Source of the DNA: a phage
Sequence record: PZ513997.1
Reading direction: 5' to 3' (one strand)
DNA: 40,530 bases
Both the position numbers and the translations under genes were made by a program. Of this stretch, positions 3,894 through 18,741 are shown in pieces (the stretch's first letter is position 1; every line of letters begins with the position of its first letter). The notes beneath the pieces are model-generated. The model was not told the DNA's origin and did not search any database. It was given only the letters and a program-made list of their open reading frames with translations.

Positions 3894-4032
3894 TACATCA
3901 CACCACAACGAGGTAGGAAATAAAGAAGATGAACATTCAGAGCATGAACTTCCCGGTAATTATTAATTGTCTCTTAGCTTCTCATGTAATTCCCTCTGTA
4001 TAACCCGAGGACGCTACGTTACGCTCAGAACC

Positions 4033-4140
4033 TATTTATCTACCCCGATTCTTCAGGAGGGCAGCGGCTTATCGTTCCCGCTAACTTGCTGGCTAGTGCT
4101 CTGCTCCGTGCCTGCGCTTACCGTTACTCGGTTACTATTG
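4033..4140 (+). repeat. copy A of a roughly 100-bp repeated non-coding element (paired with 12950-13050)
   Basis: Roughly 75-80% identity to 12950-13050 by eye, including the shared 11-mer 'tttatctaccc' and core 'cttcagRagggcaRcSgcttatcgt'. Contains a 5-bp stem (agcgg/ccgct, 4063-4082) that is replaced by aaccg/cggtt in copy B, i.e. compensatory changes. Confidence 0.45.
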
Positions 4141-4332
4141 AAGCCTTACCAACCTGTACACGCACAATCATATCTTCTAGGCTGGACATGCAAGCTGTAC
4201 CGCTTTCGTAAGTACCTTCTTCCTTGCTAGATGGGACGTATATTTGGCACTACCTTTCTAATCGCCGCTACTATCTTTAACATTACACTGCCGTTTCTTG
4301 CTATCTATGGCTTAATCATGCTGTTCGCTTAA

Positions 4333-9336: not shown

Positions 9337-9762
9337 ATGAGCGAATGTATAGAACATAACCAGAAGGGCAACAAAGCTGGTTACGGCAATGGTTACTGGA
9401 ACGGTGAACAGGTTATGCTTCACCGCTTAGCCTATTGCTTTAACAAGCAAATACCTGTAAGTGAAATTAAAGGTAGTGTAGTGATGCACACCTGTGATAA
9501 CCCTCGCTGCATTAACCCAACGCACTTACGCTTGGGTACTCAGGATGAAAACATGAAAGATATGCAAGGCAAGGGAAGGATGAGCCAGGGCAGTAAGCAT
9601 TACATATCTAAACTTACTGAGGAGGATGTTAAGTACATACGTGAGAATTATATACCACGGCATCCAAAGTTTGGAGGTAAGGCGCTTGCTGCTAAGTTTG
9701 GTATAAATCCGGCATCCCTGTGTCAAATACGAAAAGGCCTACGCTGGAAATCCGTAAGCTAA
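9337..9762 (+). CDS. HNH homing endonuclease
   Basis: 141 aa. 'HRLAYCF...VMHTCDNPRCINPTHLRLGTQDENMKD' is an HNH_3-type motif (His, Asn, His with Cys zinc ligands). Free-standing between helicase and polymerase. Junction shows duplicated 'atgaatga'. Confidence 0.8.
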   Translation: MSECIEHNQKGNKAGYGNGYWNGEQVMLHRLAYCFNKQIPVSEIKGSVVMHTCDNPRCINPTHLRLGTQDENMKDMQGKGRMSQGSKHYISKLTEEDVKYIRENYIPRHPKFGGKALAAKFGINPASLCQIRKGLRWKSVS

Positions 9763-9915: not shown

Positions 9916-11130
9916 ATGAGCAGCATACTGATTTGGGATATTGAAACGCAGAACGTACCTTACTATGGCGGGGTTGCTACACCTTACTGCCCAGATAACT
10001 ACATTGTGGAATCAGGCTTCAGGATTGATAGAACTAATCCAGATGGTACGGTGACGTGCAGTGATGTAGGTAGCGTGCGTTACGAGTCGCGGGAGGAGTT
10101 CATCTCAGCACCTAGTAGTCAGTGGTTGCCTATTCAGGACGATACTTGGTTAATGGTAATGCATAACGCCGCATATGAGATTAGCTGGGCGTTGACGTTT
10201 GCTAGGGAAGAGTTTGAAGCATTCCTGAAACGGGGAGGGCGCGTATTCGATACAATGCAAGGCGAGTACATTGCCTCAGACTTCCAAAACCTTTACCCAT
10301 CATTAGATGAGACGGCTCCTAAGTACGGCGGCAGCCACAAGGTTGACGGCGTTAAACTGCTATGGCAGCAGGGCGTGTTAACAGCAGATATTGACCCTGT
10401 ACTGCTGCATGAGTATCTAACAGGGCCAGAAGGTGATATCGTAAACACAGCGTTATGCTTCTACGGGCAGTGTGCAGTGTTCGCTGAGCGTGGGCAGATG
10501 CCTATGGTCTGGGAAAGGATGGATAGTGTACTGGCCTTAGCCTACTGCGAGTTCAACGGTGTGTACGTAGACATGCCTACAGCCAGAGCTAACCAGAAGG
10601 AGCAGGAGGACGCTATAGCAGAGCTGAAGCAGACGCTGCAAGGCTTCTTACCTGAACTGCCTGAGGGATTTGAGTTCAACTGGAACAGCGGTTATCATAT
10701 GAGTGCGTTGGTGTACGGCGGTACGGTTAAGTACAAGTGCAAGGTCCCGTATGACCCGCCAAAGTTTGTAAAGTTCGATGCCTACCTGGCCGATGTTAAG
10801 GGTACTCAGCAATACATAGATGTTAATGATTGGCAAGATAGCTGGACGTACAGCCGTGAAGTGTTTAAGTCTGGACGTAATAAAGGTCTGCCCAAAGTTT
10901 ACAAGGTGGAAAGTTCAGAGCAGTCTATGAAGTGGGGTGAGCGCCTGTATAAGTTCGAAGGGCTTGTGCACATCCAAGACCTACCAGCAGTATTGCAAGA
11001 GAAGTACGCAGAGCGCGGAGAGTTCCGAGGTGCTCAGACATTGGCAGATGGTACACCTGTGTTCAGTACAGGGACTGATGCTATGAAAGAACTGGCTAAC
11101 TATTTTATTGGGATGGAAGAGAATGAGTAA
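9916..11130 (+). CDS. DNA polymerase, N-terminal part (3'-5' exonuclease domain)
   Basis: 404 aa. Exo I motif 'ILIWDIETQN'. Followed in frame by the polymerase-domain ORF. Confidence 0.8.
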   Translation: MSSILIWDIETQNVPYYGGVATPYCPDNYIVESGFRIDRTNPDGTVTCSDVGSVRYESREEFISAPSSQWLPIQDDTWLMVMHNAAYEISWALTFAREEFEAFLKRGGRVFDTMQGEYIASDFQNLYPSLDETAPKYGGSHKVDGVKLLWQQGVLTADIDPVLLHEYLTGPEGDIVNTALCFYGQCAVFAERGQMPMVWERMDSVLALAYCEFNGVYVDMPTARANQKEQEDAIAELKQTLQGFLPELPEGFEFNWNSGYHMSALVYGGTVKYKCKVPYDPPKFVKFDAYLADVKGTQQYIDVNDWQDSWTYSREVFKSGRNKGLPKVYKVESSEQSMKWGERLYKFEGLVHIQDLPAVLQEKYAERGEFRGAQTLADGTPVFSTGTDAMKELANYFIGMEENE

Positions 11131-12285
11131 ATGAGTAACAAGGCTTCGGAGTTCTTCAAGGCATACAGTGAGATGACCTTGCGTGAGAAAGATTTAGGCT
11201 TCTATGAGAAGAAGGAATTTAACAAGGACGGTAGCCTGCGTAAGACTACAGGTATGCTTCCGTATGTAATCCCTCAGAAGGAAGACGGCAGCGGCATCAT
11301 TCATCACAGATTGAATCACTGCTCAACCACGACCGGACGACTATCAGCATCTAACCCGAATATGCAGCAGTTGCCGCGTGAATCTAAGGTTAAGCAGATT
11401 CTGCGTAGTCGTTACGGTGAGCAAGGTATGATTGCTCAGTGTGACTACTCAGCTATGGAAGTTGTAATGGGCTGTGTAATAACAGGTGATAAGAAACTAC
11501 TATCCTTGCTTGAAGCTGGTACAGATATGCACTGCTATCGTTTAGCATTCCAAGAGGGTATGCCTTATGAAGAAGTCTACGAGCTTTGCCATAACCCGGA
11601 TGCACCTAACCATAAGGAATGGAAGAAGAAACGAACAGCAATCAAAACCTTCAGCTTCGCAGCGCAGTATGGAGCTTCCGCTAAAGGACTGGCGTTCGCC
11701 TCTGGTGCCAGCCTGAAGGACGCTGAGAAGTTCTTAGCTAACGAAGAAGCCCTGTTCCCTGAATCTATTAAGTACCGTGATGTAATTGCAGCAGAGGTAA
11801 ATCGTACAGCACTGTTAGAGCCTATGCGCCGCGAGCAATCAGATGATGGTAGCTGGCGTATCTATCGGGAAGGCTATTTTACTGCTCCTTGTGGTACTCG
11901 TTACCGCTTCCGTCAGAAACCTGTATGGCGTGAAGGTAAGCAGGTCATGGACTTTAAACCTACAGAGATGGCTAACTATCCATTTCAAGGTTCAGGTTCT
12001 CTGCTTATGCTTATTGCGATGGGTATGATTCTGCGCGCAGGATTAGCTACGGATTGGGGTAACGGTAGTTGGTGCTTGTTAGCAACTGTACATGACTCCG
12101 TATATTGTGACTGTAAAGATGAGTCAACGGCGAGGGAAGTAGGTCAATTAATTAAGAAATGTATGGAAGGTGCAAGAGATAGAATGCTGCAACTTTGGCC
12201 TAACTTCGGAATACTACAGGACGTTAAATTCCCTGCCGAGTGTGGTATTGGTAAATCATTTAAAGAGGAGCAGGTACTTGGCTAA
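11131..12285 (+). CDS. DNA polymerase, C-terminal part (family A polymerase domain)
   Basis: 384 aa. Motif A 'CDYSAMEVV', motif B 'RTAIKTFSFAAQYGAS', motif C 'VHDSVYCDC'. Confidence 0.85.
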   Translation: MSNKASEFFKAYSEMTLREKDLGFYEKKEFNKDGSLRKTTGMLPYVIPQKEDGSGIIHHRLNHCSTTTGRLSASNPNMQQLPRESKVKQILRSRYGEQGMIAQCDYSAMEVVMGCVITGDKKLLSLLEAGTDMHCYRLAFQEGMPYEEVYELCHNPDAPNHKEWKKKRTAIKTFSFAAQYGASAKGLAFASGASLKDAEKFLANEEALFPESIKYRDVIAAEVNRTALLEPMRREQSDDGSWRIYREGYFTAPCGTRYRFRQKPVWREGKQVMDFKPTEMANYPFQGSGSLLMLIAMGMILRAGLATDWGNGSWCLLATVHDSVYCDCKDESTAREVGQLIKKCMEGARDRMLQLWPNFGILQDVKFPAECGIGKSFKEEQVLG

Positions 12286-12329
12286 GTGGTATTGGTAAAT
12301 CATTTAAAGAGGAGCAGGTACTTGGCTAA
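12242..12329 (+). repeat. exact 44-bp tandem duplication at a CDS junction
   Basis: 'gtggtattggtaaatcatttaaagaggagcaggtacttggctaa' occurs at 12242-12285 (polymerase 3' end) and again at 12286-12329 (start of the HNH ORF, GTG start, read in a different codon phase). This is the pattern expected when two CDSs that overlap by 44 bp are concatenated. Confidence 0.7.
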
Positions 12330-12825
12330 AGTTACTAAACCTATACCGGAAGGCATACGGGAATTTTGGAGATATGATTCTGAGAGTGGGAAATTAATAT
12401 GCATACAAAACATAAAGCGCACTAAGTACAGTGAAGGCATAGTTGCAGCTAGTCTTACAACTACAGGTAATTATCTAAAGCTGAATTTTAATAAGGTAAG
12501 CTACCTTCAGCATCGGGTAGCATGGTTCCTTTACTATAATGAACAACCTCCTGAAGTTATAGACCACAAGGACGGTAACGGCCTTAACAACGCTATAAAC
12601 AACCTGCGTGCTGCAGATGATGGTTGTAACATGATGGACATTACTGTAACTGCTAAATCCACTACAGGTATTAAAGGTGTCATGCCTGTACGGGGAGGTA
12701 AGCTGTTCCGTGCCGAAGTATGTGTAGATGGTAAGCGCTACCAGAAGCACAGCAAGGACGTAGCTTTCTTAGAGCAGTGGGTACAGGCTAAGCGTAAAGA
12801 ATTACACGGAGAGTTTTATAAATAG
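12286..12825 (+). CDS. HNH homing endonuclease with AP2-like DNA-binding domain
   Basis: 179 aa. HNH motif 'VIDHKDGNGLNNAINNLRAA' and AP2-like 'GIKGVMPVRGGKLFRAEVCVDGKRYQKHSKDVAFLEQWVQAKRKELHG'. Its 5' end is the second copy of the 44-bp duplicate. Confidence 0.75.
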   Translation: MVLVNHLKRSRYLAKVTKPIPEGIREFWRYDSESGKLICIQNIKRTKYSEGIVAASLTTTGNYLKLNFNKVSYLQHRVAWFLYYNEQPPEVIDHKDGNGLNNAINNLRAADDGCNMMDITVTAKSTTGIKGVMPVRGGKLFRAEVCVDGKRYQKHSKDVAFLEQWVQAKRKELHGEFYK

Positions 12826-12949
12826 ATGCTTGCTGACGCTACTGACCGTTTCCGGTTGGCTCCCTGCCTCGTCGATGTGTGTACTATACGGAAAGCATCC
12901 CTGCTTGTCAACAGCTATTTATAAGTGTACGGGAGGAACCGTTCAGTCT

Positions 12950-13050
12950 CGTTTTATCTACCCAGAGACTTCAGAAGGGCAACCGCTTATCGTCCTCGGT
13001 TAACGTCTTGCTATGTGGCACATCTTACTTACTTCGTTACTGCTTGTCAA
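12950..13050 (+). repeat. copy B of the roughly 100-bp repeated non-coding element (paired with 4033-4140)
   Basis: See copy A. Lies in the 366-bp non-coding-looking island 12826-13191 downstream of the HNH gene. Stem aaccg/cggtt at 12981-13001. Confidence 0.45.
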
Positions 13051-13191
13051 TCTCTTTCTTAAATGATTCTTACTTTCATCTACTACCTCCTATTAATAAA
13101 GTTAAGGCTGCAATCTCTGAAGACTGCATCACTAACCCTACTTAAGTTAGCGAGTCTTATTTCTCCTAGACTCTCATCTGCATCACACTGA

Positions 13192-13380
13192 ATGAAAGTA
13201 AGAATCATCAATCACGATGCTTATGGTCCTTTCTTAACTGATACATGTAAGGAACTGTACGCAGTAGGTACAGTGCATGAAGTACAAGATTTCTTCCCTG
13301 ACACGGGGGAGGTTATCTTAGGGTATGAAGATGAAGGATTTACCTTTGATCCATCAGAGTATGAAGTTGTGGAGGAGTAG
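13192..13380 (+). CDS. small acidic hypothetical protein
   Basis: 62 aa, strongly acidic ('...FDPSEYEVVEE'). Immediately upstream of the pentapeptide-repeat gene. Confidence 0.35.
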   Translation: MKVRIINHDAYGPFLTDTCKELYAVGTVHEVQDFFPDTGEVILGYEDEGFTFDPSEYEVVEE

Positions 13381-13902
13381 ATGAACTATTTAGATATCTG
13401 CGAGAAGTACAATGTAGGAAGCCTGCGCGACGCTAACCTGCGCGACGCTGACCTGTACGGCGCTAACCTGTACGGCGCTGACCTGCGCGACGCTAACCTG
13501 TACGGCGCTAACCTGTGCGGCGCTGACCTGCGCGACGCTAACCTGTACGGCGCTAACCTGTGCGGCGCTGACCTGCGCGGCGCTAACCTGCGCGGCGCTA
13601 ACCTGCGCGGCGCTAACCTGTACGGCGCTAACCTGCGCGGCGCTAACCTGCGCCTAACCTGCGCGGCGCTAACCTGTACGGCGCTAACCTGCGCGGCGCT
13701 AACCTGCGCGGCGCTAACCTGTGCGGCGCTAACCTGTGCGGCGCTAACCTGCGCGGCGCTAACCTGCGCGGCGCTAACCTGTACGGCGCTAACCTGCGCG
13801 ACGCTAACCTGCGCGACGCTGACCTGTGCGGCGCTGACCTGCGCGACGCTGACCTGTGCGGCGCTAACCTGCGCGGCGCTGACCTGCATGGGACTGACTT
13901 GA
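13381..13902 (+). CDS. pentapeptide-repeat protein (Qnr/MfpA-type fold), reading frame disrupted
   Basis: First 90 codons encode perfect A(N/D)LxG pentapeptides ('[30 protein letters not shown]...'). At 13651-13661 one 15-nt unit is 11 nt, shifting the called frame into 'LTCAALTC...'. The pentapeptide frame continues to a TAG at 13935-13937 ('...[19 protein letters not shown]'). Confidence 0.6.
13426..13886 (+). repeat. 15-bp tandem repeat array (about 31 units, one truncated to 11 bp)
   Basis: Units of form 'cgcgRcgctRacctg', head to tail with no spacers. This is the coding repeat of the pentapeptide-repeat gene. Truncated unit at 13651-13661. Confidence 0.85.
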
Positions 13903-14130: not shown

Positions 14131-15117
14131 ATGCCGCGCATCAATGCCATTAAACTCTTCACTAAAGAACAGCACCAAGAAATTCTGAGCAAGTATAAAT
14201 CAAACGCTGAGGCAGCAGCAGCATACAACGCAGCATCTGGTTTAGATGAACCTGTGGCTTATCGTCAGCTTGTTAAGTACTGGCGCAGAATCTACGAAGC
14301 AGCTAATGGCAGTAAAGCGAAAGCTAATAAAGGGCTGGTTGAAGCGCGTAAGCTAATACAACCTTCCCCTACAGATGATATCGGTAATACTGATGTTCCT
14401 GACATGTGTCGCCGTATTCTTGTCATTGGTGACCTGCACGCTCCTTACACCCACCCTGATGCCCTCGATTTCCTTCGTTCTGTCCGAGACAGTTACGGTC
14501 CTGACATGGTTGTTCAGGTAGGTGACGAGACTGACGGGCACGCTATTAGCTTCCATGACTCTGACCCGGACTTGGATAGCGCAGGTGTTGAACTTGAGAA
14601 AGCTAAGCAGTATCTAGCTAAGGTGCATGACCTGTTCCCTAACCTGCTGGTGTGCGACTCGAACCACGGTAGCTTGGTGTACCGCCGCGCTAAAGCGCAT
14701 GGCCTGCCAGTACAGTTCATTAAAAAGTACCGCGATATCCTGTTCCCAGAACACGGTGCTAAGAAGTGGAGCTGGTCAGACGCTTGGGTATTGAATACTC
14801 CGACCGGACCAGTACGCTTCCAACATCAAGTATCTGGTGACCTTATGCTGAACGCTTCGCATGAACGCACCAGCATGGTAATCGGTCACCACCATGCGTT
14901 ATACGATATTAAGTATGCAGCAAGCAGCACGGCATTGTACTTCGGTGCGCATGCAGGTTGCTTGATTGACCACAAAGCTATGGCCTTTGCTTACGGTAAG
15001 CTGACTCGTAATAAGCCTATCCTCGGTGTAATGACTATTACCGAAGGATGTCCTAGTCTGATTCCTATGCTACTGGATGCGGAAGGACGTTGGGTTAATC
15101 GTAAGAAGAAACGCTAA
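14131..15117 (+). CDS. calcineurin-like metallophosphoesterase (phosphatase or nuclease)
   Basis: 328 aa. Five-motif MPP signature in order: 'VIGDLHAPY' (GDxH), 'VGDETDGH' (GDxxD), 'CDSNHGS' (GNH-like), 'VIGHHHA' (GHxH). Preceded by about 90 residues without a recognised motif. Confidence 0.7.
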   Translation: MPRINAIKLFTKEQHQEILSKYKSNAEAAAAYNAASGLDEPVAYRQLVKYWRRIYEAANGSKAKANKGLVEARKLIQPSPTDDIGNTDVPDMCRRILVIGDLHAPYTHPDALDFLRSVRDSYGPDMVVQVGDETDGHAISFHDSDPDLDSAGVELEKAKQYLAKVHDLFPNLLVCDSNHGSLVYRRAKAHGLPVQFIKKYRDILFPEHGAKKWSWSDAWVLNTPTGPVRFQHQVSGDLMLNASHERTSMVIGHHHALYDIKYAASSTALYFGAHAGCLIDHKAMAFAYGKLTRNKPILGVMTITEGCPSLIPMLLDAEGRWVNRKKKR

Positions 15118-15570
15118 ATGACTGAAGAGTTAATACGCGAATACCTTGCGCTAGACCCTTCTAGTCCTACTAATCTGAAGTGGATTAAGACTTCTGGCAG
15201 CCGGGTTAAGTTAGGGTCTGTGCAAGGTTATCTAAACTCGCATGGTTATGTTAAGGTTAAACTCAAAGGAAAGGCGCTGTCGCTGCATCGCGCAGTGTTC
15301 TTATTACATTATGGATACCTTCCATATGAGGTAGATCATGTAAATAGGGATAAGACTGATAACAGACCTGATAATCTTAGAGCAGCAACTAGAAGCTCTA
15401 ACTGCCATAATAAGAACTGCACGGGATTTAACTTTGATAAGAAGTCACAGAAGTTTAGAGTCCGTGTGCAAGTAACTACCACTAAGCGAATTACTGTAGG
15501 CTGGTATGATAGTCCATTTGAGGCTAGGGCAGCTTACTTAACGTTCAAAACAGCTAACAATCTAATCTAA
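15118..15570 (+). CDS. HNH homing endonuclease with AP2-like domain
   Basis: 150 aa. N-terminal 'YLALDPSSPTNLKWIK', HNH motif 'YEVDHVNRDKTDNRPDNLRAATRSSNCHNK', AP2-like 'FRVRVQVTTTKRITVGWYDSPFEARAAYLTF'. Paralogous to 21916-22392. Confidence 0.75.
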   Translation: MTEELIREYLALDPSSPTNLKWIKTSGSRVKLGSVQGYLNSHGYVKVKLKGKALSLHRAVFLLHYGYLPYEVDHVNRDKTDNRPDNLRAATRSSNCHNKNCTGFNFDKKSQKFRVRVQVTTTKRITVGWYDSPFEARAAYLTFKTANNLI

Positions 15571-16374
15571 ATGACTATTAACTTATCCTCTCTGAACTCC
15601 CTTGTTAACTCTACTGTAGAAGCTCAAGGTATTGACCAGTCTGTTACCCAGAGCGGAGGTAATTTTGCAGACGTGTTACTTCCGCGTGGAAGCTACTATG
15701 GTCGTTTCATGGAGTACATCGAGCTGGGTAAAAAGATTCCTATGCACATGGGTAAACCTACTGGTAAGCCTGCTGTAATGAACGTGCGTTTAGGCTTCAT
15801 CGTCTACACCCCAGACGGCAGCATTAAGCGTATCAACCCGTTCCCGATGGCTATCAGCAGCTTCGAGAAGGCTAAATTCAAGCAAGTGTTCGATAAGATG
15901 AACTACGACGGCACTCTGAAGCACATGGCCCAGCGTTTGGGTCAGGCGTTCATGTTCGAAGTTGAGCAGTACACTTCTAAGACTGGCAAGACTTCTAACA
16001 CTATCGACTTCCTGAGTCTGCGCCAGCTGCCTAAGTTTGACCCGAATACTGGCGCACCGATTGAACTGCCTGCACTGGATGAATCCGGTCTGCGTCTGTT
16101 CCTGTTCGACAACCCGACCAAAGAAACTTGGGATAGTCTGCACATTGAGAAGAACAACTTCATTCAGGAAGATATCCTGCAAGCTGTGAACTTTGAAGGC
16201 TCTGCATTGCAGCAGATGCTTATGGGCGGTGTTCCTGATATGGCAGCAATGGCTGCGCCAGCTGCTGCTCCTGCAGCACCTGTAGCTCTGACTGCTCCGG
16301 CTGCACCTGCTGCCCCCATGACAGCTCCAGTGGCCCCGGCTATGCCAGCAGCACCAGTTGCACCAGCTATCTAA
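15571..16374 (+). CDS. hypothetical replication-module protein with Ala/Pro-rich C-terminal tail
   Basis: 267 aa. Globular N-terminal part, then low-complexity 'AAMAAPAAAPAAPVALTAPAAPAAPMTAPVAPAMPAAPVAPAI'. A single-stranded-DNA-binding role is possible from position only. Confidence 0.35.
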   Translation: MTINLSSLNSLVNSTVEAQGIDQSVTQSGGNFADVLLPRGSYYGRFMEYIELGKKIPMHMGKPTGKPAVMNVRLGFIVYTPDGSIKRINPFPMAISSFEKAKFKQVFDKMNYDGTLKHMAQRLGQAFMFEVEQYTSKTGKTSNTIDFLSLRQLPKFDPNTGAPIELPALDESGLRLFLFDNPTKETWDSLHIEKNNFIQEDILQAVNFEGSALQQMLMGGVPDMAAMAAPAAAPAAPVALTAPAAPAAPMTAPVAPAMPAAPVAPAI

Positions 16375-16758: not shown

Positions 16759-17679
16759 ATGATGATTGGCGGCGTTAATCTAGATACTCTGGCGGTTCAA
16801 CTAGAGACGCCGCCAGTCTCTGATAAGGTACTGCTGTTAGATGCAGACCAGCATATATACAAAGCCGCTAGTACTGTTAAGCGGCTTGATACTGCAATAC
16901 GTAGGTTTTACCAGTCAGTACTAGAGGAGAAATTCTATGTTAACACTAAAGAAGTTCGGGCCTACATTACGCCTTCTAATAACTTTAAGTGCGGACGTTT
17001 CCTACTACCGACCGTTAAGCCCTATCAACAACAACGTTCAACTAGAGAAGAGCTACCTCTCAAGGCCCCACTTAAAGAACATCTTATCGCTAATCCGCAT
17101 GAATACGCAGCGCAAGGTATAGAAATTGTATTCGATTACTTAGCTGAAGCGGATGACCGTATCATAGAAGACAGCATTGAGTTCGGAGAGCGAGGTGTAG
17201 TTAGCAGCTTCGATAAAGATATGAATCTGTGCAGAGGTCCTAAGTGGAATCCCGAGCTGGGCACTATCGACACTATTGATAACGAGTACGGTTGGATAGA
17301 TTACAATAAGGATAAAGGTAAGATTGTAGGACATGGCACAGCATTTTTCTGGGCGCAGATGCTAATGGGTGATACTGCTGACAACGTCAAAGGTATTCAA
17401 ACTTTAAACGGTAAATCTTGCGGTCCGGCTAAGGCTTACGAGTTCTTAAAGGACTTCACAGATTCGACCAACTCAGCTAGGGCAGTAGTCCTAGCTTACG
17501 CTGAAATTAACCAGAACTTCCTAGCCGAGGCTGAATGCCTATGGCTGCACAGAAACAAAGATGATTCAGCATTCAAGTACATACACCCTTTGTTAGACGA
17601 CGAGCTTCAGAAGTGGTGCGAGTCTCTACATTCCTACAACGAGGATTACAAAGCATGGCGACTTTCAACGCAGCAGTAG
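16759..17679 (+). CDS. 5'-3' exonuclease (T7 gp6-like, FEN family)
   Basis: 306 aa. Matches to T7 gene 6 exonuclease blocks: 'VLLLDADQHIYKA' vs T7 'ILVMDGDWLVFQA'; 'VVSSFDKDMNL' vs 'IISCDKDFKTI'; 'MGDTADNVKGIQ' vs 'KGDITDGYSGIA'. Confidence 0.8.
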   Translation: MMIGGVNLDTLAVQLETPPVSDKVLLLDADQHIYKAASTVKRLDTAIRRFYQSVLEEKFYVNTKEVRAYITPSNNFKCGRFLLPTVKPYQQQRSTREELPLKAPLKEHLIANPHEYAAQGIEIVFDYLAEADDRIIEDSIEFGERGVVSSFDKDMNLCRGPKWNPELGTIDTIDNEYGWIDYNKDKGKIVGHGTAFFWAQMLMGDTADNVKGIQTLNGKSCGPAKAYEFLKDFTDSTNSARAVVLAYAEINQNFLAEAECLWLHRNKDDSAFKYIHPLLDDELQKWCESLHSYNEDYKAWRLSTQQ

Positions 17680-17704
17680 ATGGCGACTTTCAACGCAGCA
17701 GTAG
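17655..17704 (+). repeat. exact 25-bp tandem duplication at a CDS junction
   Basis: 'atggcgactttcaacgcagcagtag' at 17655-17679 (exonuclease 3' end) and again at 17680-17704 (start of next ORF). Same signature as the 44-bp case. Confidence 0.7.
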
Positions 17705-17874
17705 AAGCAATCGTGGAACTGTACTTCAAAGAAGAGTTCGCAGAGATGGAAGCTAAGCTGTCTGACTTGTACGATGTAAGTCCTGAGTTGTACAGACAAG
17801 CGCAGGTTAAGCTAGAAGATTTGATTGCAGAGCAACATTGCTTAGATGAAGGTGAGGAGCTTGATTTATGGTAA
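17680..17874 (+). CDS. small acidic hypothetical protein
   Basis: 64 aa, strongly acidic, between exonuclease and endonuclease VII. Confidence 0.35.
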   Translation: MATFNAAVEAIVELYFKEEFAEMEAKLSDLYDVSPELYRQAQVKLEDLIAEQHCLDEGEELDLW

Positions 17875-18300
17875 ATGGTAATGCGTAAGGTTACACGTGC
17901 ACAGTTAAGAAGCATCACTATGAAACTGGCTAAGGAGCAGGGAGGTAACTGCCTGCTCTGCGGCGAGCCTTTGGACTTCTCAATTAAAGGGGCTAAAGGT
18001 GATAGCGTTGTTTGTGACCATGACCATATTACTGGACGTATTCGTGGGGCATTGCACAGGTCGTGCAATGGGGGTGAGGGGAAAGTGGCGTCCGCTTGCG
18101 GTAGGTGGATTGTTGGTAGTATGGGTAGCAGTGCTGCTATCGCCAATGCTCTGCGCAATATGGCTGACTACTTAGAGCGTGAACCTACTGACTTCATTTA
18201 TCCTACGCACAAAACAGAAGAAGAGAAGCGCCTAGCAGCTAACGCTAAGGCACGTAAGGCTAGGGCAACCCGTAAGGCAGCACAGGAGATTAAGAAATGA
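17875..18300 (+). CDS. endonuclease VII-like DNA junction-resolving enzyme
   Basis: 141 aa. 'CLLCGEPLDF...VVCDHDHITGRIRGALHRSCNGGEG' matches the T4 endonuclease VII zinc-binding/HNH-like core (C-x2-C ... DHDH-x-TG-x-RG ... CN). phiKMV-like phages carry this in the same position. Confidence 0.8.
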   Translation: MVMRKVTRAQLRSITMKLAKEQGGNCLLCGEPLDFSIKGAKGDSVVCDHDHITGRIRGALHRSCNGGEGKVASACGRWIVGSMGSSAAIANALRNMADYLEREPTDFIYPTHKTEEEKRLAANAKARKARATRKAAQEIKK

Positions 18301-18741
18301 ATGAGTGATGAATTAGAGATAGGTCGTGAGTATACTTGGGGATCTGGGGCATGTACATATGTTCGTGATGAGTATGGGATTTGGTGTTTAAGAGACAAGG
18401 GTCATAGGCTCAGTAAGGACAGGGCAGCAGAGCATATTAAATATGCTACCAGTTACAGTAAGTTCCGCTATTTGAATGATGGGAAAGCTGCGGGTCGTCT
18501 TAATGTTGACGACGTACGCAAACCTTCACATTACCAAGTATTCCCGGACGTAGAGAGTATTGAGATTATCGCACGTAGCATGACGCAAGCAGAGTTCAAA
18601 GGCTTCTGCCTCGGTAATGTTCTGAAGTACCGACTGCGTGCAGGTAAGAAGTCTGAACTTGCTACAATGGAGAAGGACCTGAAGAAGGCCGACTTTTATA
18701 AAGAACTGTTCGAACAGCATAAGGGTAAATGCTATGAGTAA
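18301..18741 (+). CDS. hypothetical protein
   Basis: 146 aa, between endonuclease VII and RNA polymerase. No motif recognised with confidence. Confidence 0.35.
   Translation: MSDELEIGREYTWGSGACTYVRDEYGIWCLRDKGHRLSKDRAAEHIKYATSYSKFRYLNDGKAAGRLNVDDVRKPSHYQVFPDVESIEIIARSMTQAEFKGFCLGNVLKYRLRAGKKSELATMEKDLKKADFYKELFEQHKGKCYE

Follow-up and report, generated by a model that had tools for sequence, protein, structure and literature searches.

Here we describe a gene at positions 14131-15117 (+ strand) of a 40,530-nucleotide stretch of phage DNA (sequence record PZ513997.1), the whole of which is hereafter called the window. The locus is fitted exactly by an open reading frame (ORF) running from ATG to stop, and its 328-residue product is 100% identical to WMX18799.1, labelled 'phosphoesterase' in Escherichia phage vB_EcoP_PAS7 (Autographiviridae, Slopekvirinae; hereafter PAS7). 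A helical N-terminal extension and a conserved linker precede a catalytic domain of the metallophosphoesterase (MPP) superfamily, and the features of the gene are as follows.

14131-15117, + strand: complete coding sequence (CDS), 328 residues, of a phage metallophosphoesterase of PHROG_221 and the Bxb1 gp47 / L5 gp54-type family, called from the ORF and the matches to PHROG_221 and PF00149
14131-14358, + strand: predicted N-terminal helical domain (residues 1-76), a three-helix bundle resembling a helix-turn-helix (HTH) plus a fourth helix
14359-14406, + strand: linker (residues 77-92), Q-P-S-P-x-D-D-(I/L/V)-G-x-T-x-(V/I)-P, invariant or nearly so in alignments of close relatives
14407-15105, + strand: catalytic MPP domain (residues 93-325), the part common to all relatives
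14428-14439, + strand: motif I, G100-D101-L-H103, with predicted metal ligands D101 and H103, then the family-typical P105-Y106
14521-14535, + strand: motif II, G131-D132-E133-T134-D135, with D132 as the predicted bridging aspartate
14539-14586, + strand: family-specific loop after motif II (residues 137-152), H137-A-x-S140-F-H142-D-S-D-P-x-L-x-S-A-G152
14659-14670, + strand: motif III variant S177-N178-H179-G180 (GNH-like, with S in place of G), then a basic helix, Y184-R-R-A-K188
14824-14826, + strand: motif IV, H232, invariant in alignments of relatives
14884-14895, + strand: motif V, G252-H253-H254-H255 (GHxH)
14956-14970, + strand: family-specific motif G276-C277-L278-I-D280, of which G276, C277 and L278 are invariant in the family alignment

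A calcineurin-like metallophosphoesterase

Both the fold and the full set of catalytic residues show that the product is a calcineurin-like metallophosphoesterase. The Pfam model Metallophos (PF00149) scores 27.5 bits on residues 95-257, above its gathering cut-off of 21.5 (E=5e-6), and also matches 60/104 relatives, while PHROG_221 ('metallo-phosphoesterase') is matched over the full length of the protein (E=8.8e-109, profile positions 14-360 of 367). All five MPP motifs can be read from the sequence (G100-D-L-H103, G131-D-E-T-D135, S177-N-H179-G, H232 and G252-H-H-H255). When 104 diverse relatives are aligned, no variation occurs at D132, N178, H179, H232 or H255, and conservation reaches at least 90% at D101, H103, D135 and H253. 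Such strict or near-strict conservation of the catalytic residues, in a set of over 100 diverse sequences, points to selection for catalysis. An earlier note on this DNA, made from its letters, had claimed a complete MPP signature behind an uncharacterised N-terminal extension, and both claims hold, at a level that chance would not give, with approximately 92 residues preceding motif I.

An AlphaFold2 model built from a 77-sequence alignment has a mean predicted local distance difference test (pLDDT) of 82.6 and a predicted template modelling score of 0.72, and its predicted catalytic domain is an alpha/beta sandwich. Searched against the PDB with Foldseek, the model retrieved Mre11, LpxH, Vps29, DP1 and MJ0936 at E-values from 1e-5 to 1e-2 and approximately 12% identity, and no ranking of MPP sub-families was obtained. 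With the single protein, a sequence search of the PDB found nothing better than 2qjc (E=0.44); the family profile matched no entry there, and NCBIfam gave sub-threshold matches only (YfcE at 12 bits versus a cut-off of 56). Since nucleases and small-molecule enzymes are equally close structurally, the fold alone does not fix the substrate. Thus the structure search proposed in the earlier note upheld the placement in the MPP superfamily and left sub-family and substrate undecided; it was profile-profile comparison that tied the catalytic domain to a family of actinophage enzymes, described below. Judged from the model, the catalytic domain is a distinct MPP sub-family on the nuclease and phosphodiesterase side of the superfamily. 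The loop at residues 137-152 carries the strongest family-specific conservation, yet the lowest model confidence (pLDDT below 50 at residues 138-141), and is probably a mobile active-site loop, possibly a substrate-binding lid.

Relatives, N-terminal module and genomic setting

Compared by hhalign, the profile of the window family and a seven-sequence alignment of actinophage metallophosphoesterases match at 99.1% probability (E=9.3e-19) over 212 columns, pairing window residues 93-314 with residues 2-241 of Bxb1 gp47; against Bxb1 gp47 alone the value is 96.7%. Other phage MPPs, used as controls, reached 50.7% over 73 columns (lambda NinI), 16% (T4 gp47) and 4.4% (T5 A1). Moreover, Bxb1 gp47 itself belongs to PHROG_221 (E=4.5e-116, positions 110-363 of 367). 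These comparisons of sequence profiles show homology, across the full catalytic domain, to the Bxb1 gp47 / L5 gp54 / A10ZJ24 gp48 family. D101, D132 and H253 align with D10, D41 and H175 of Bxb1 gp47 and A10ZJ24 gp48, and in the latter the mutants D10G and D41V are inactive and H175D loses toxicity (PMC12287305). Phage DNA replication in M. tuberculosis depends on A10ZJ24 gp48, a toxic enzyme with phosphodiesterase and DNase activity that breaks down the host genome (PMC12287305). In Bxb1, gp47 serves the serine integrase as its recombination directionality factor, and replication of the phage DNA requires it as well (Savinov et al. 2012, as cited in PMC11795197 and PMC12287305); a weak 3'-5' exonuclease activity has been described for it (PMC11795197). 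The link to these studied proteins suggests a concrete function for the gene, that of a replication-associated DNase or phosphodiesterase with D101, D132, H179 and H253 as key residues. The family is known, and partly characterised, from actinophages; for its Autographiviridae branch with a helical N-terminal module the literature search found no experimental study.

The family is already annotated and widespread, and is not an orphan. By tblastn 643 phage records match the protein, 611 of them over at least 80% of its length. The hosts are mainly Klebsiella, Escherichia, Pectobacterium, Pseudomonas, Aeromonas, Vibrio, Proteus and Salmonella, the podoviruses include KP34-like, PhiM1-like and SP6/K1-5-like phages, and the gene is usually annotated '(metallo-)phosphoesterase'. 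A search of 1.84 billion metagenomic cluster representatives added 1,631 clusters at E<=1e-3, and the core common to the family spans residues ~94-324. The gene is kept in hundreds of podoviruses of Klebsiella, Escherichia, Pectobacterium and Pseudomonas that are therapeutic candidates, as well as in many marine phages, under no other label than 'phosphoesterase'. T7 has no such enzyme, as the earlier note had stated: an hmmsearch of its six-frame translation with the family profile found no homologue at E<=10.

Six relatives (P0124, P0127, P0178, P0179, P0215 and P0241) are interrupted by inteins at no fewer than four sites, all of them in catalytic or invariant motifs. In window numbering the insertions follow H103 (motif I), E133 (motif II; between E133 and residue 134 in P0124, P0127 and P0178) and H255 (motif V), or separate G276 from C277, the G and C of the GCLID motif, in P0241. 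One of the inteins matches LAGLIDADG_3. Some mycobacteriophage homologues of gp47 are split, or are annotated as 'phosphoesterase + HNH endonuclease'.

The N-terminal domain is predicted to form helices at residues 12-21, 25-36, 45-57 and 62-74/76, both in the full-length model and when modelled alone. Among close relatives H15, L19, A28, Y32, R45, Q46, V48, W51 and R52 are invariant, those from R45 to R52 lying on helix 3. Model confidence is low where this domain passes into the linker and rises along it (pLDDT 57 at residues 71-80, 85 at residues 81-90). Structurally the domain bears a weak resemblance to the DNA-binding folds of homeodomain and Myb proteins. The extension is far from universal: motif I could be located in 124 of the best 150 representatives, among which an extension is lacking in 67 and reaches 60 residues or more in 53, and about half of the relatives consist of the catalytic domain alone (~235 residues). 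Other branches of the family carry, at the same N-terminal position, Pfam-significant HTH_23, HTH_24, HTH_psq or HNH_repeat (homing-endonuclease repeat) domains. Because true HTH domains occupy this position elsewhere in the family, we infer that the extension is a divergent HTH-like module that would tether the enzyme to DNA or to a partner.

The gene lies 3' of those for a helicase and a family A DNA polymerase (9916-12285). Downstream of it are encoded a PHROG_862 protein, a T7 gp6-like exonuclease, endonuclease VII, a gp1.7-like deoxynucleoside monophosphate (dNMP) kinase and RNA polymerase. The neighbouring features are listed here.

12286-12825 and 15118-15570: two free-standing HNH homing endonuclease genes flanking the phosphoesterase region (PHROG_99, E=2e-40 and 6e-45)
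15571-16374: p21, a conserved protein of 267 residues (PHROG_862, no Pfam match), just 3' of the phosphoesterase and HNH genes
16759-18741: genes for exonuclease, endonuclease VII and dNMP kinase, the last at 18301-18741

Placed between the DNA polymerase gene and those for exonuclease, endonuclease VII and kinase, the gene does sit in the replication module to which the earlier note had assigned it. Comparable settings recur elsewhere. The order in a Vectrevirus is exonuclease, HNH, phosphoesterase, nucleotide kinase and ligase, and on 4/5 unrelated metagenomic contigs the relatives adjoin combinations of Pol A, ERF, primase, helicase, DNA methylase, dNMP kinase, NT5C, ThyA/ThyX, ribonucleotide reductase (RNR) and dUTPase. 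An HNH gene also stands directly beside the homologue in the Vectrevirus and on one metagenomic contig (L003). Inteins in four motifs together with flanking HNH genes form a pattern typical of conserved replication and nucleotide-metabolism genes.

The p21 protein ends in an Ala/Pro-rich tail of ~45 residues and is a candidate partner within the replication module, perhaps resembling a single-stranded DNA-binding protein or an annealase. The polymerase is called as two abutting ORFs, 9916-11130 (404 residues) and 11131-12285 (384 residues), whose counterparts in PAS7 are CDSs that overlap by 8 nt. Only the second of them matches Pfam DNA_pol_A, and the first half has no Pfam exonuclease match. 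A further ORF, at 13381-13902 (+), encodes pentapeptide repeats (Pfam Pentapeptide, E=1.6e-28) within 31 copies of a 15-bp tandem repeat (array 13422-13887). The frame of this array shifts midway, from units of the type (A/G)(D/N)L(Y/R/C)G to LTCAA units, possibly through a real indel or an assembly error. In the GenBank record of PAS7 the opposite strand of the repeat is labelled 'modular polyketide synthase', almost certainly spuriously.

Aligned to the PAS7 genome the window is collinear, and not one mismatch occurs in the collinear blocks. Compared with PAS7 its intergenic DNA is absent, gene overlaps are duplicated (PAS7 9686-9729, for example, occurs twice) and four short segments are reverse-complemented in place. 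This non-natural architecture can be seen, for instance, at 3967-4230 and 12826-13193, and at the junctions 13380|13381, 13902|13903, 14130|14131, 15117|15118, 15570|15571, 16374|16375 and 16758|16759. At the phosphoesterase gene the 84 nt that precede it in PAS7, with a Shine-Dalgarno-like 'aagga', are gone, and the ATG at 14131 abuts the preceding stop. The window thus has the appearance of called CDSs joined end to end and all set on the + strand, and the phosphoesterase coding sequence in it is unaffected. Since natural intergenic DNA is missing, promoters, terminators and ribosome-binding sites are not assessable from the window.

Possible functions of the enzyme

We favour, by a modest degree, the reading that the protein is a binuclear-metal phosphodiesterase acting on DNA, in replication and recombination and/or in the breakdown of host DNA, with the N-terminal module as its tether. 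Such an enzyme, of the Mn2+/Mg2+ type, would hydrolyse phosphodiester bonds in DNA as the studied relatives do, by endo- or exonuclease action in the middle phase of infection. It may process replication or recombination intermediates or DNA ends, or may help to degrade host DNA to nucleotides, and the adjacent exonuclease and dNMP kinase could recycle the nucleotides released. The helical bundle of ~76 residues and the conserved PSPxDD linker would hold the catalytic domain on DNA or on a partner in the replisome, and other branches would have gained true HTH domains at the same position independently. If real, such a tether would account for the way in which a promiscuous nuclease is steered in the course of infection.

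A narrower scenario can be drawn for the Autographiviridae branch, which we offer tentatively and regard as rather unlikely in full: the fusion of a divergent HTH-like module to a gp47-type metallophosphoesterase would have yielded a DNA-tethered accessory nuclease working with a family A replisome, in the manner of the PolD subunit DP1, or else a targeted degrader of the host chromosome that also blunts host defences. In either case, if true, the gene would supply a replication factor so far missing for KP34-, SP6- and PhiM1-like phages, widely conserved and absent from T7.

Several observations weigh against a DNA-directed, tethered enzyme. The window protein and Bxb1 gp47 share only ~18-20% identity, so substrate specificity may differ. 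The exonuclease activity of gp47 is weak, contamination was not excluded (PMC11795197), and earlier work, according to a statement in PMC12287305, saw no phosphoesterase activity. For the Autographiviridae the literature yielded genome descriptions only, and functional work on any member was not found. The small-molecule enzymes MJ0936, YfcE and LpxH match the model at Z- and E-values equal to those of nucleases. Among the metagenomic relatives the fifth (L007) sits among uncharacterised genes. The first half of the polymerase shows, by eye, an Exo I motif ('WDIET') and an Exo II-like one ('HNAAYE'); the polymerase thus appears to keep its own Exo motifs, and a separate proofreader is not obviously needed. 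As to the tether, the N-terminal region matches no Pfam family, a scan of 17 N-terminal sequences of the window branch having given no HTH match, hhalign of that N-terminus against HTH_23-bearing relatives gives a probability of 1% (not significant), and the loop between helices 2 and 3 is long, variable and prone to insertion, which is atypical of a canonical HTH.

The same chemistry could instead be directed at nucleotides or RNA ends, for salvage or end repair, by a 2',3'-cyclic phosphodiesterase/3'-phosphatase, an oligonucleotidase or a nucleotide pyrophosphatase, which would clean up degradation products of host nucleic acid for the dNMP kinase and the RNR/ThyX pathway. We consider this unlikely, if not markedly so. 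In bacterial Pnkp the MPP domain acts as a 2',3' phosphatase (PMC3675462). Two generic phosphodiesterases, MJ0936 and YfcE, are as close in structure as the nucleases, as is the pyrophosphatase LpxH, and the recurrent neighbours of the gene fit salvage well: dNMP kinase (in the window and on contigs L002, L006 and L019), NT5C, thymidylate synthase/ThyX, RNR, dUTPase and a dGTP diphosphohydrolase-like gene. However, many branches carry fused DNA-binding domains, which speaks for polymeric DNA as the substrate, and the family members studied act on DNA (PMC12287305, PMC11795197). The earlier note had raised a different small substrate, in that the enzyme might destroy the cyclic-nucleotide or oligonucleotide signals of host immunity. 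The systems concerned would be CBASS, Pycsar, Thoeris or type III CRISPR. MPP enzymes such as CpdA and Rv0805 are able to hydrolyse cyclic nucleotides, and the fold leaves the substrate unfixed. Moreover, D29 gp66, a different mycobacteriophage metallophosphoesterase, uses cyclic AMP, as cited in PMC12287305. We nevertheless judge this role distinctly improbable, for the gene is broadly conserved (611 of the 643 phage matches cover at least 80% of the protein), lies in the replication module and not among early accessory genes, and belongs to a family with inteins and DNA-binding fusions. Acb1 and Apyc1, the known phage enzymes that do degrade such signals, are built on other folds (those of 2H phosphoesterases and metallo-beta-lactamases, respectively). 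A PADLOC scan gave no related signal, and the literature search turned up no demonstration that a phage MPP degrades immune signals. The one anti-defence role in print for the family is exerted through degradation of host DNA (PMC12287305), and nothing in these searches supports the immune-signal proposal.

Two further roles would take the protein away from nucleic acid hydrolysis. In the very unlikely event that it is mainly a non-catalytic cofactor or regulator, it would resemble Bxb1 gp47 in its directionality function, with the N-terminal domain regulating transcription or replication. That function of gp47 is reportedly independent of the phosphoesterase motifs, and the N-terminal domain does resemble DNA-binding folds; the directionality role has also been called moonlighting (PMC11795197). 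Against this stand the near-invariance of the catalytic residues and the lack of an N-terminal domain in about half of the relatives. Moreover, no integrase gene is annotated at positions 1-24680 of the PAS7 record, and phages of this group are, as far as is known, strictly lytic. Least probable of all, and scarcely credible, is another suggestion of the earlier note, a lambda-PPase-type Ser/Thr/Tyr protein phosphatase acting on host or phage proteins. Here the MPP superfamily core is held in common and the hhalign alignment to lambda NinI, itself a phage-encoded MPP, covers motifs I-III; but it extends over no more than the 73 columns given above, NinI belongs to PHROG_246, and the signatures of the phosphoprotein phosphatase (PPP) family, GDxHG, GDxVDRG and GNHE, are replaced in the window protein by GDLHAP, GDETDGH and SNHG. 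No PPP phosphatase occurs among the top 50 Foldseek matches. The DNA-directed phosphodiesterase favoured here implies no new class of biology.

Comparison with known systems

A nuclease of the Mre11/SbcD type had been another option in the earlier note. Nuclease-like action is indeed part of the best-supported reading, but membership of that family is contradicted: the protein has no capping domain, its chain finishing at residue 328 while still inside the core beta-sheet (strands 298-304 and 307-312), no Rad50/SbcC-type gene is present in the PAS7 annotation of the region or among the window ORFs scanned, and T4 gp47 scored only 16% in the comparison above. A relationship of the type seen in PolD DP1, the archaeal 3'-5' proofreading exonuclease, or in the B subunits of eukaryotic Pol alpha, delta and epsilon was likewise rejected, with 13% identity; DP1 has an oligonucleotide-binding (OB) fold, whereas the extension here is helical and the phage polymerase is of family A and not D or B. 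The minimal MPPs MJ0936, YfcE and Vps29 are 12-13% identical, and the phage domain is larger by ~70 residues and has family-specific loops of its own.

T5 A1, a pre-early gene product of 556 residues, was rejected as a relative on its hhalign score of 4.4%. By functional analogy only it is similar, as a predicted phage MPP tied to the breakdown of host DNA (PMC7824862). With Acb1 and Apyc1 phosphodiesterase chemistry would be a hypothetical analogy, the MPP fold being the only one found in the window protein.

The closest known system is the Bxb1 gp47 family. The window protein shares with it the PHROG, the motif set, a similar spacing of motifs I and II, the proline after motif I, the G-x-L-x-D motif (G-H-L-M-D in gp47) and the location in a replication module, the gp47 gene lying between those for DNA polymerase and for primase and endonuclease VII. 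The two differ in motif III (SNHG here versus GNHD in the gp47 family), in the loop that follows motif II (HAxSFHDSDPDLxSAG versus PQPSRWxKGTxxEF) and in the helical N-terminal extension of 92 residues, which gp47 lacks. The phage here, a podovirus that is lytic, presumably lacks a serine integrase, and a role in recombination directionality is therefore not expected of its enzyme.

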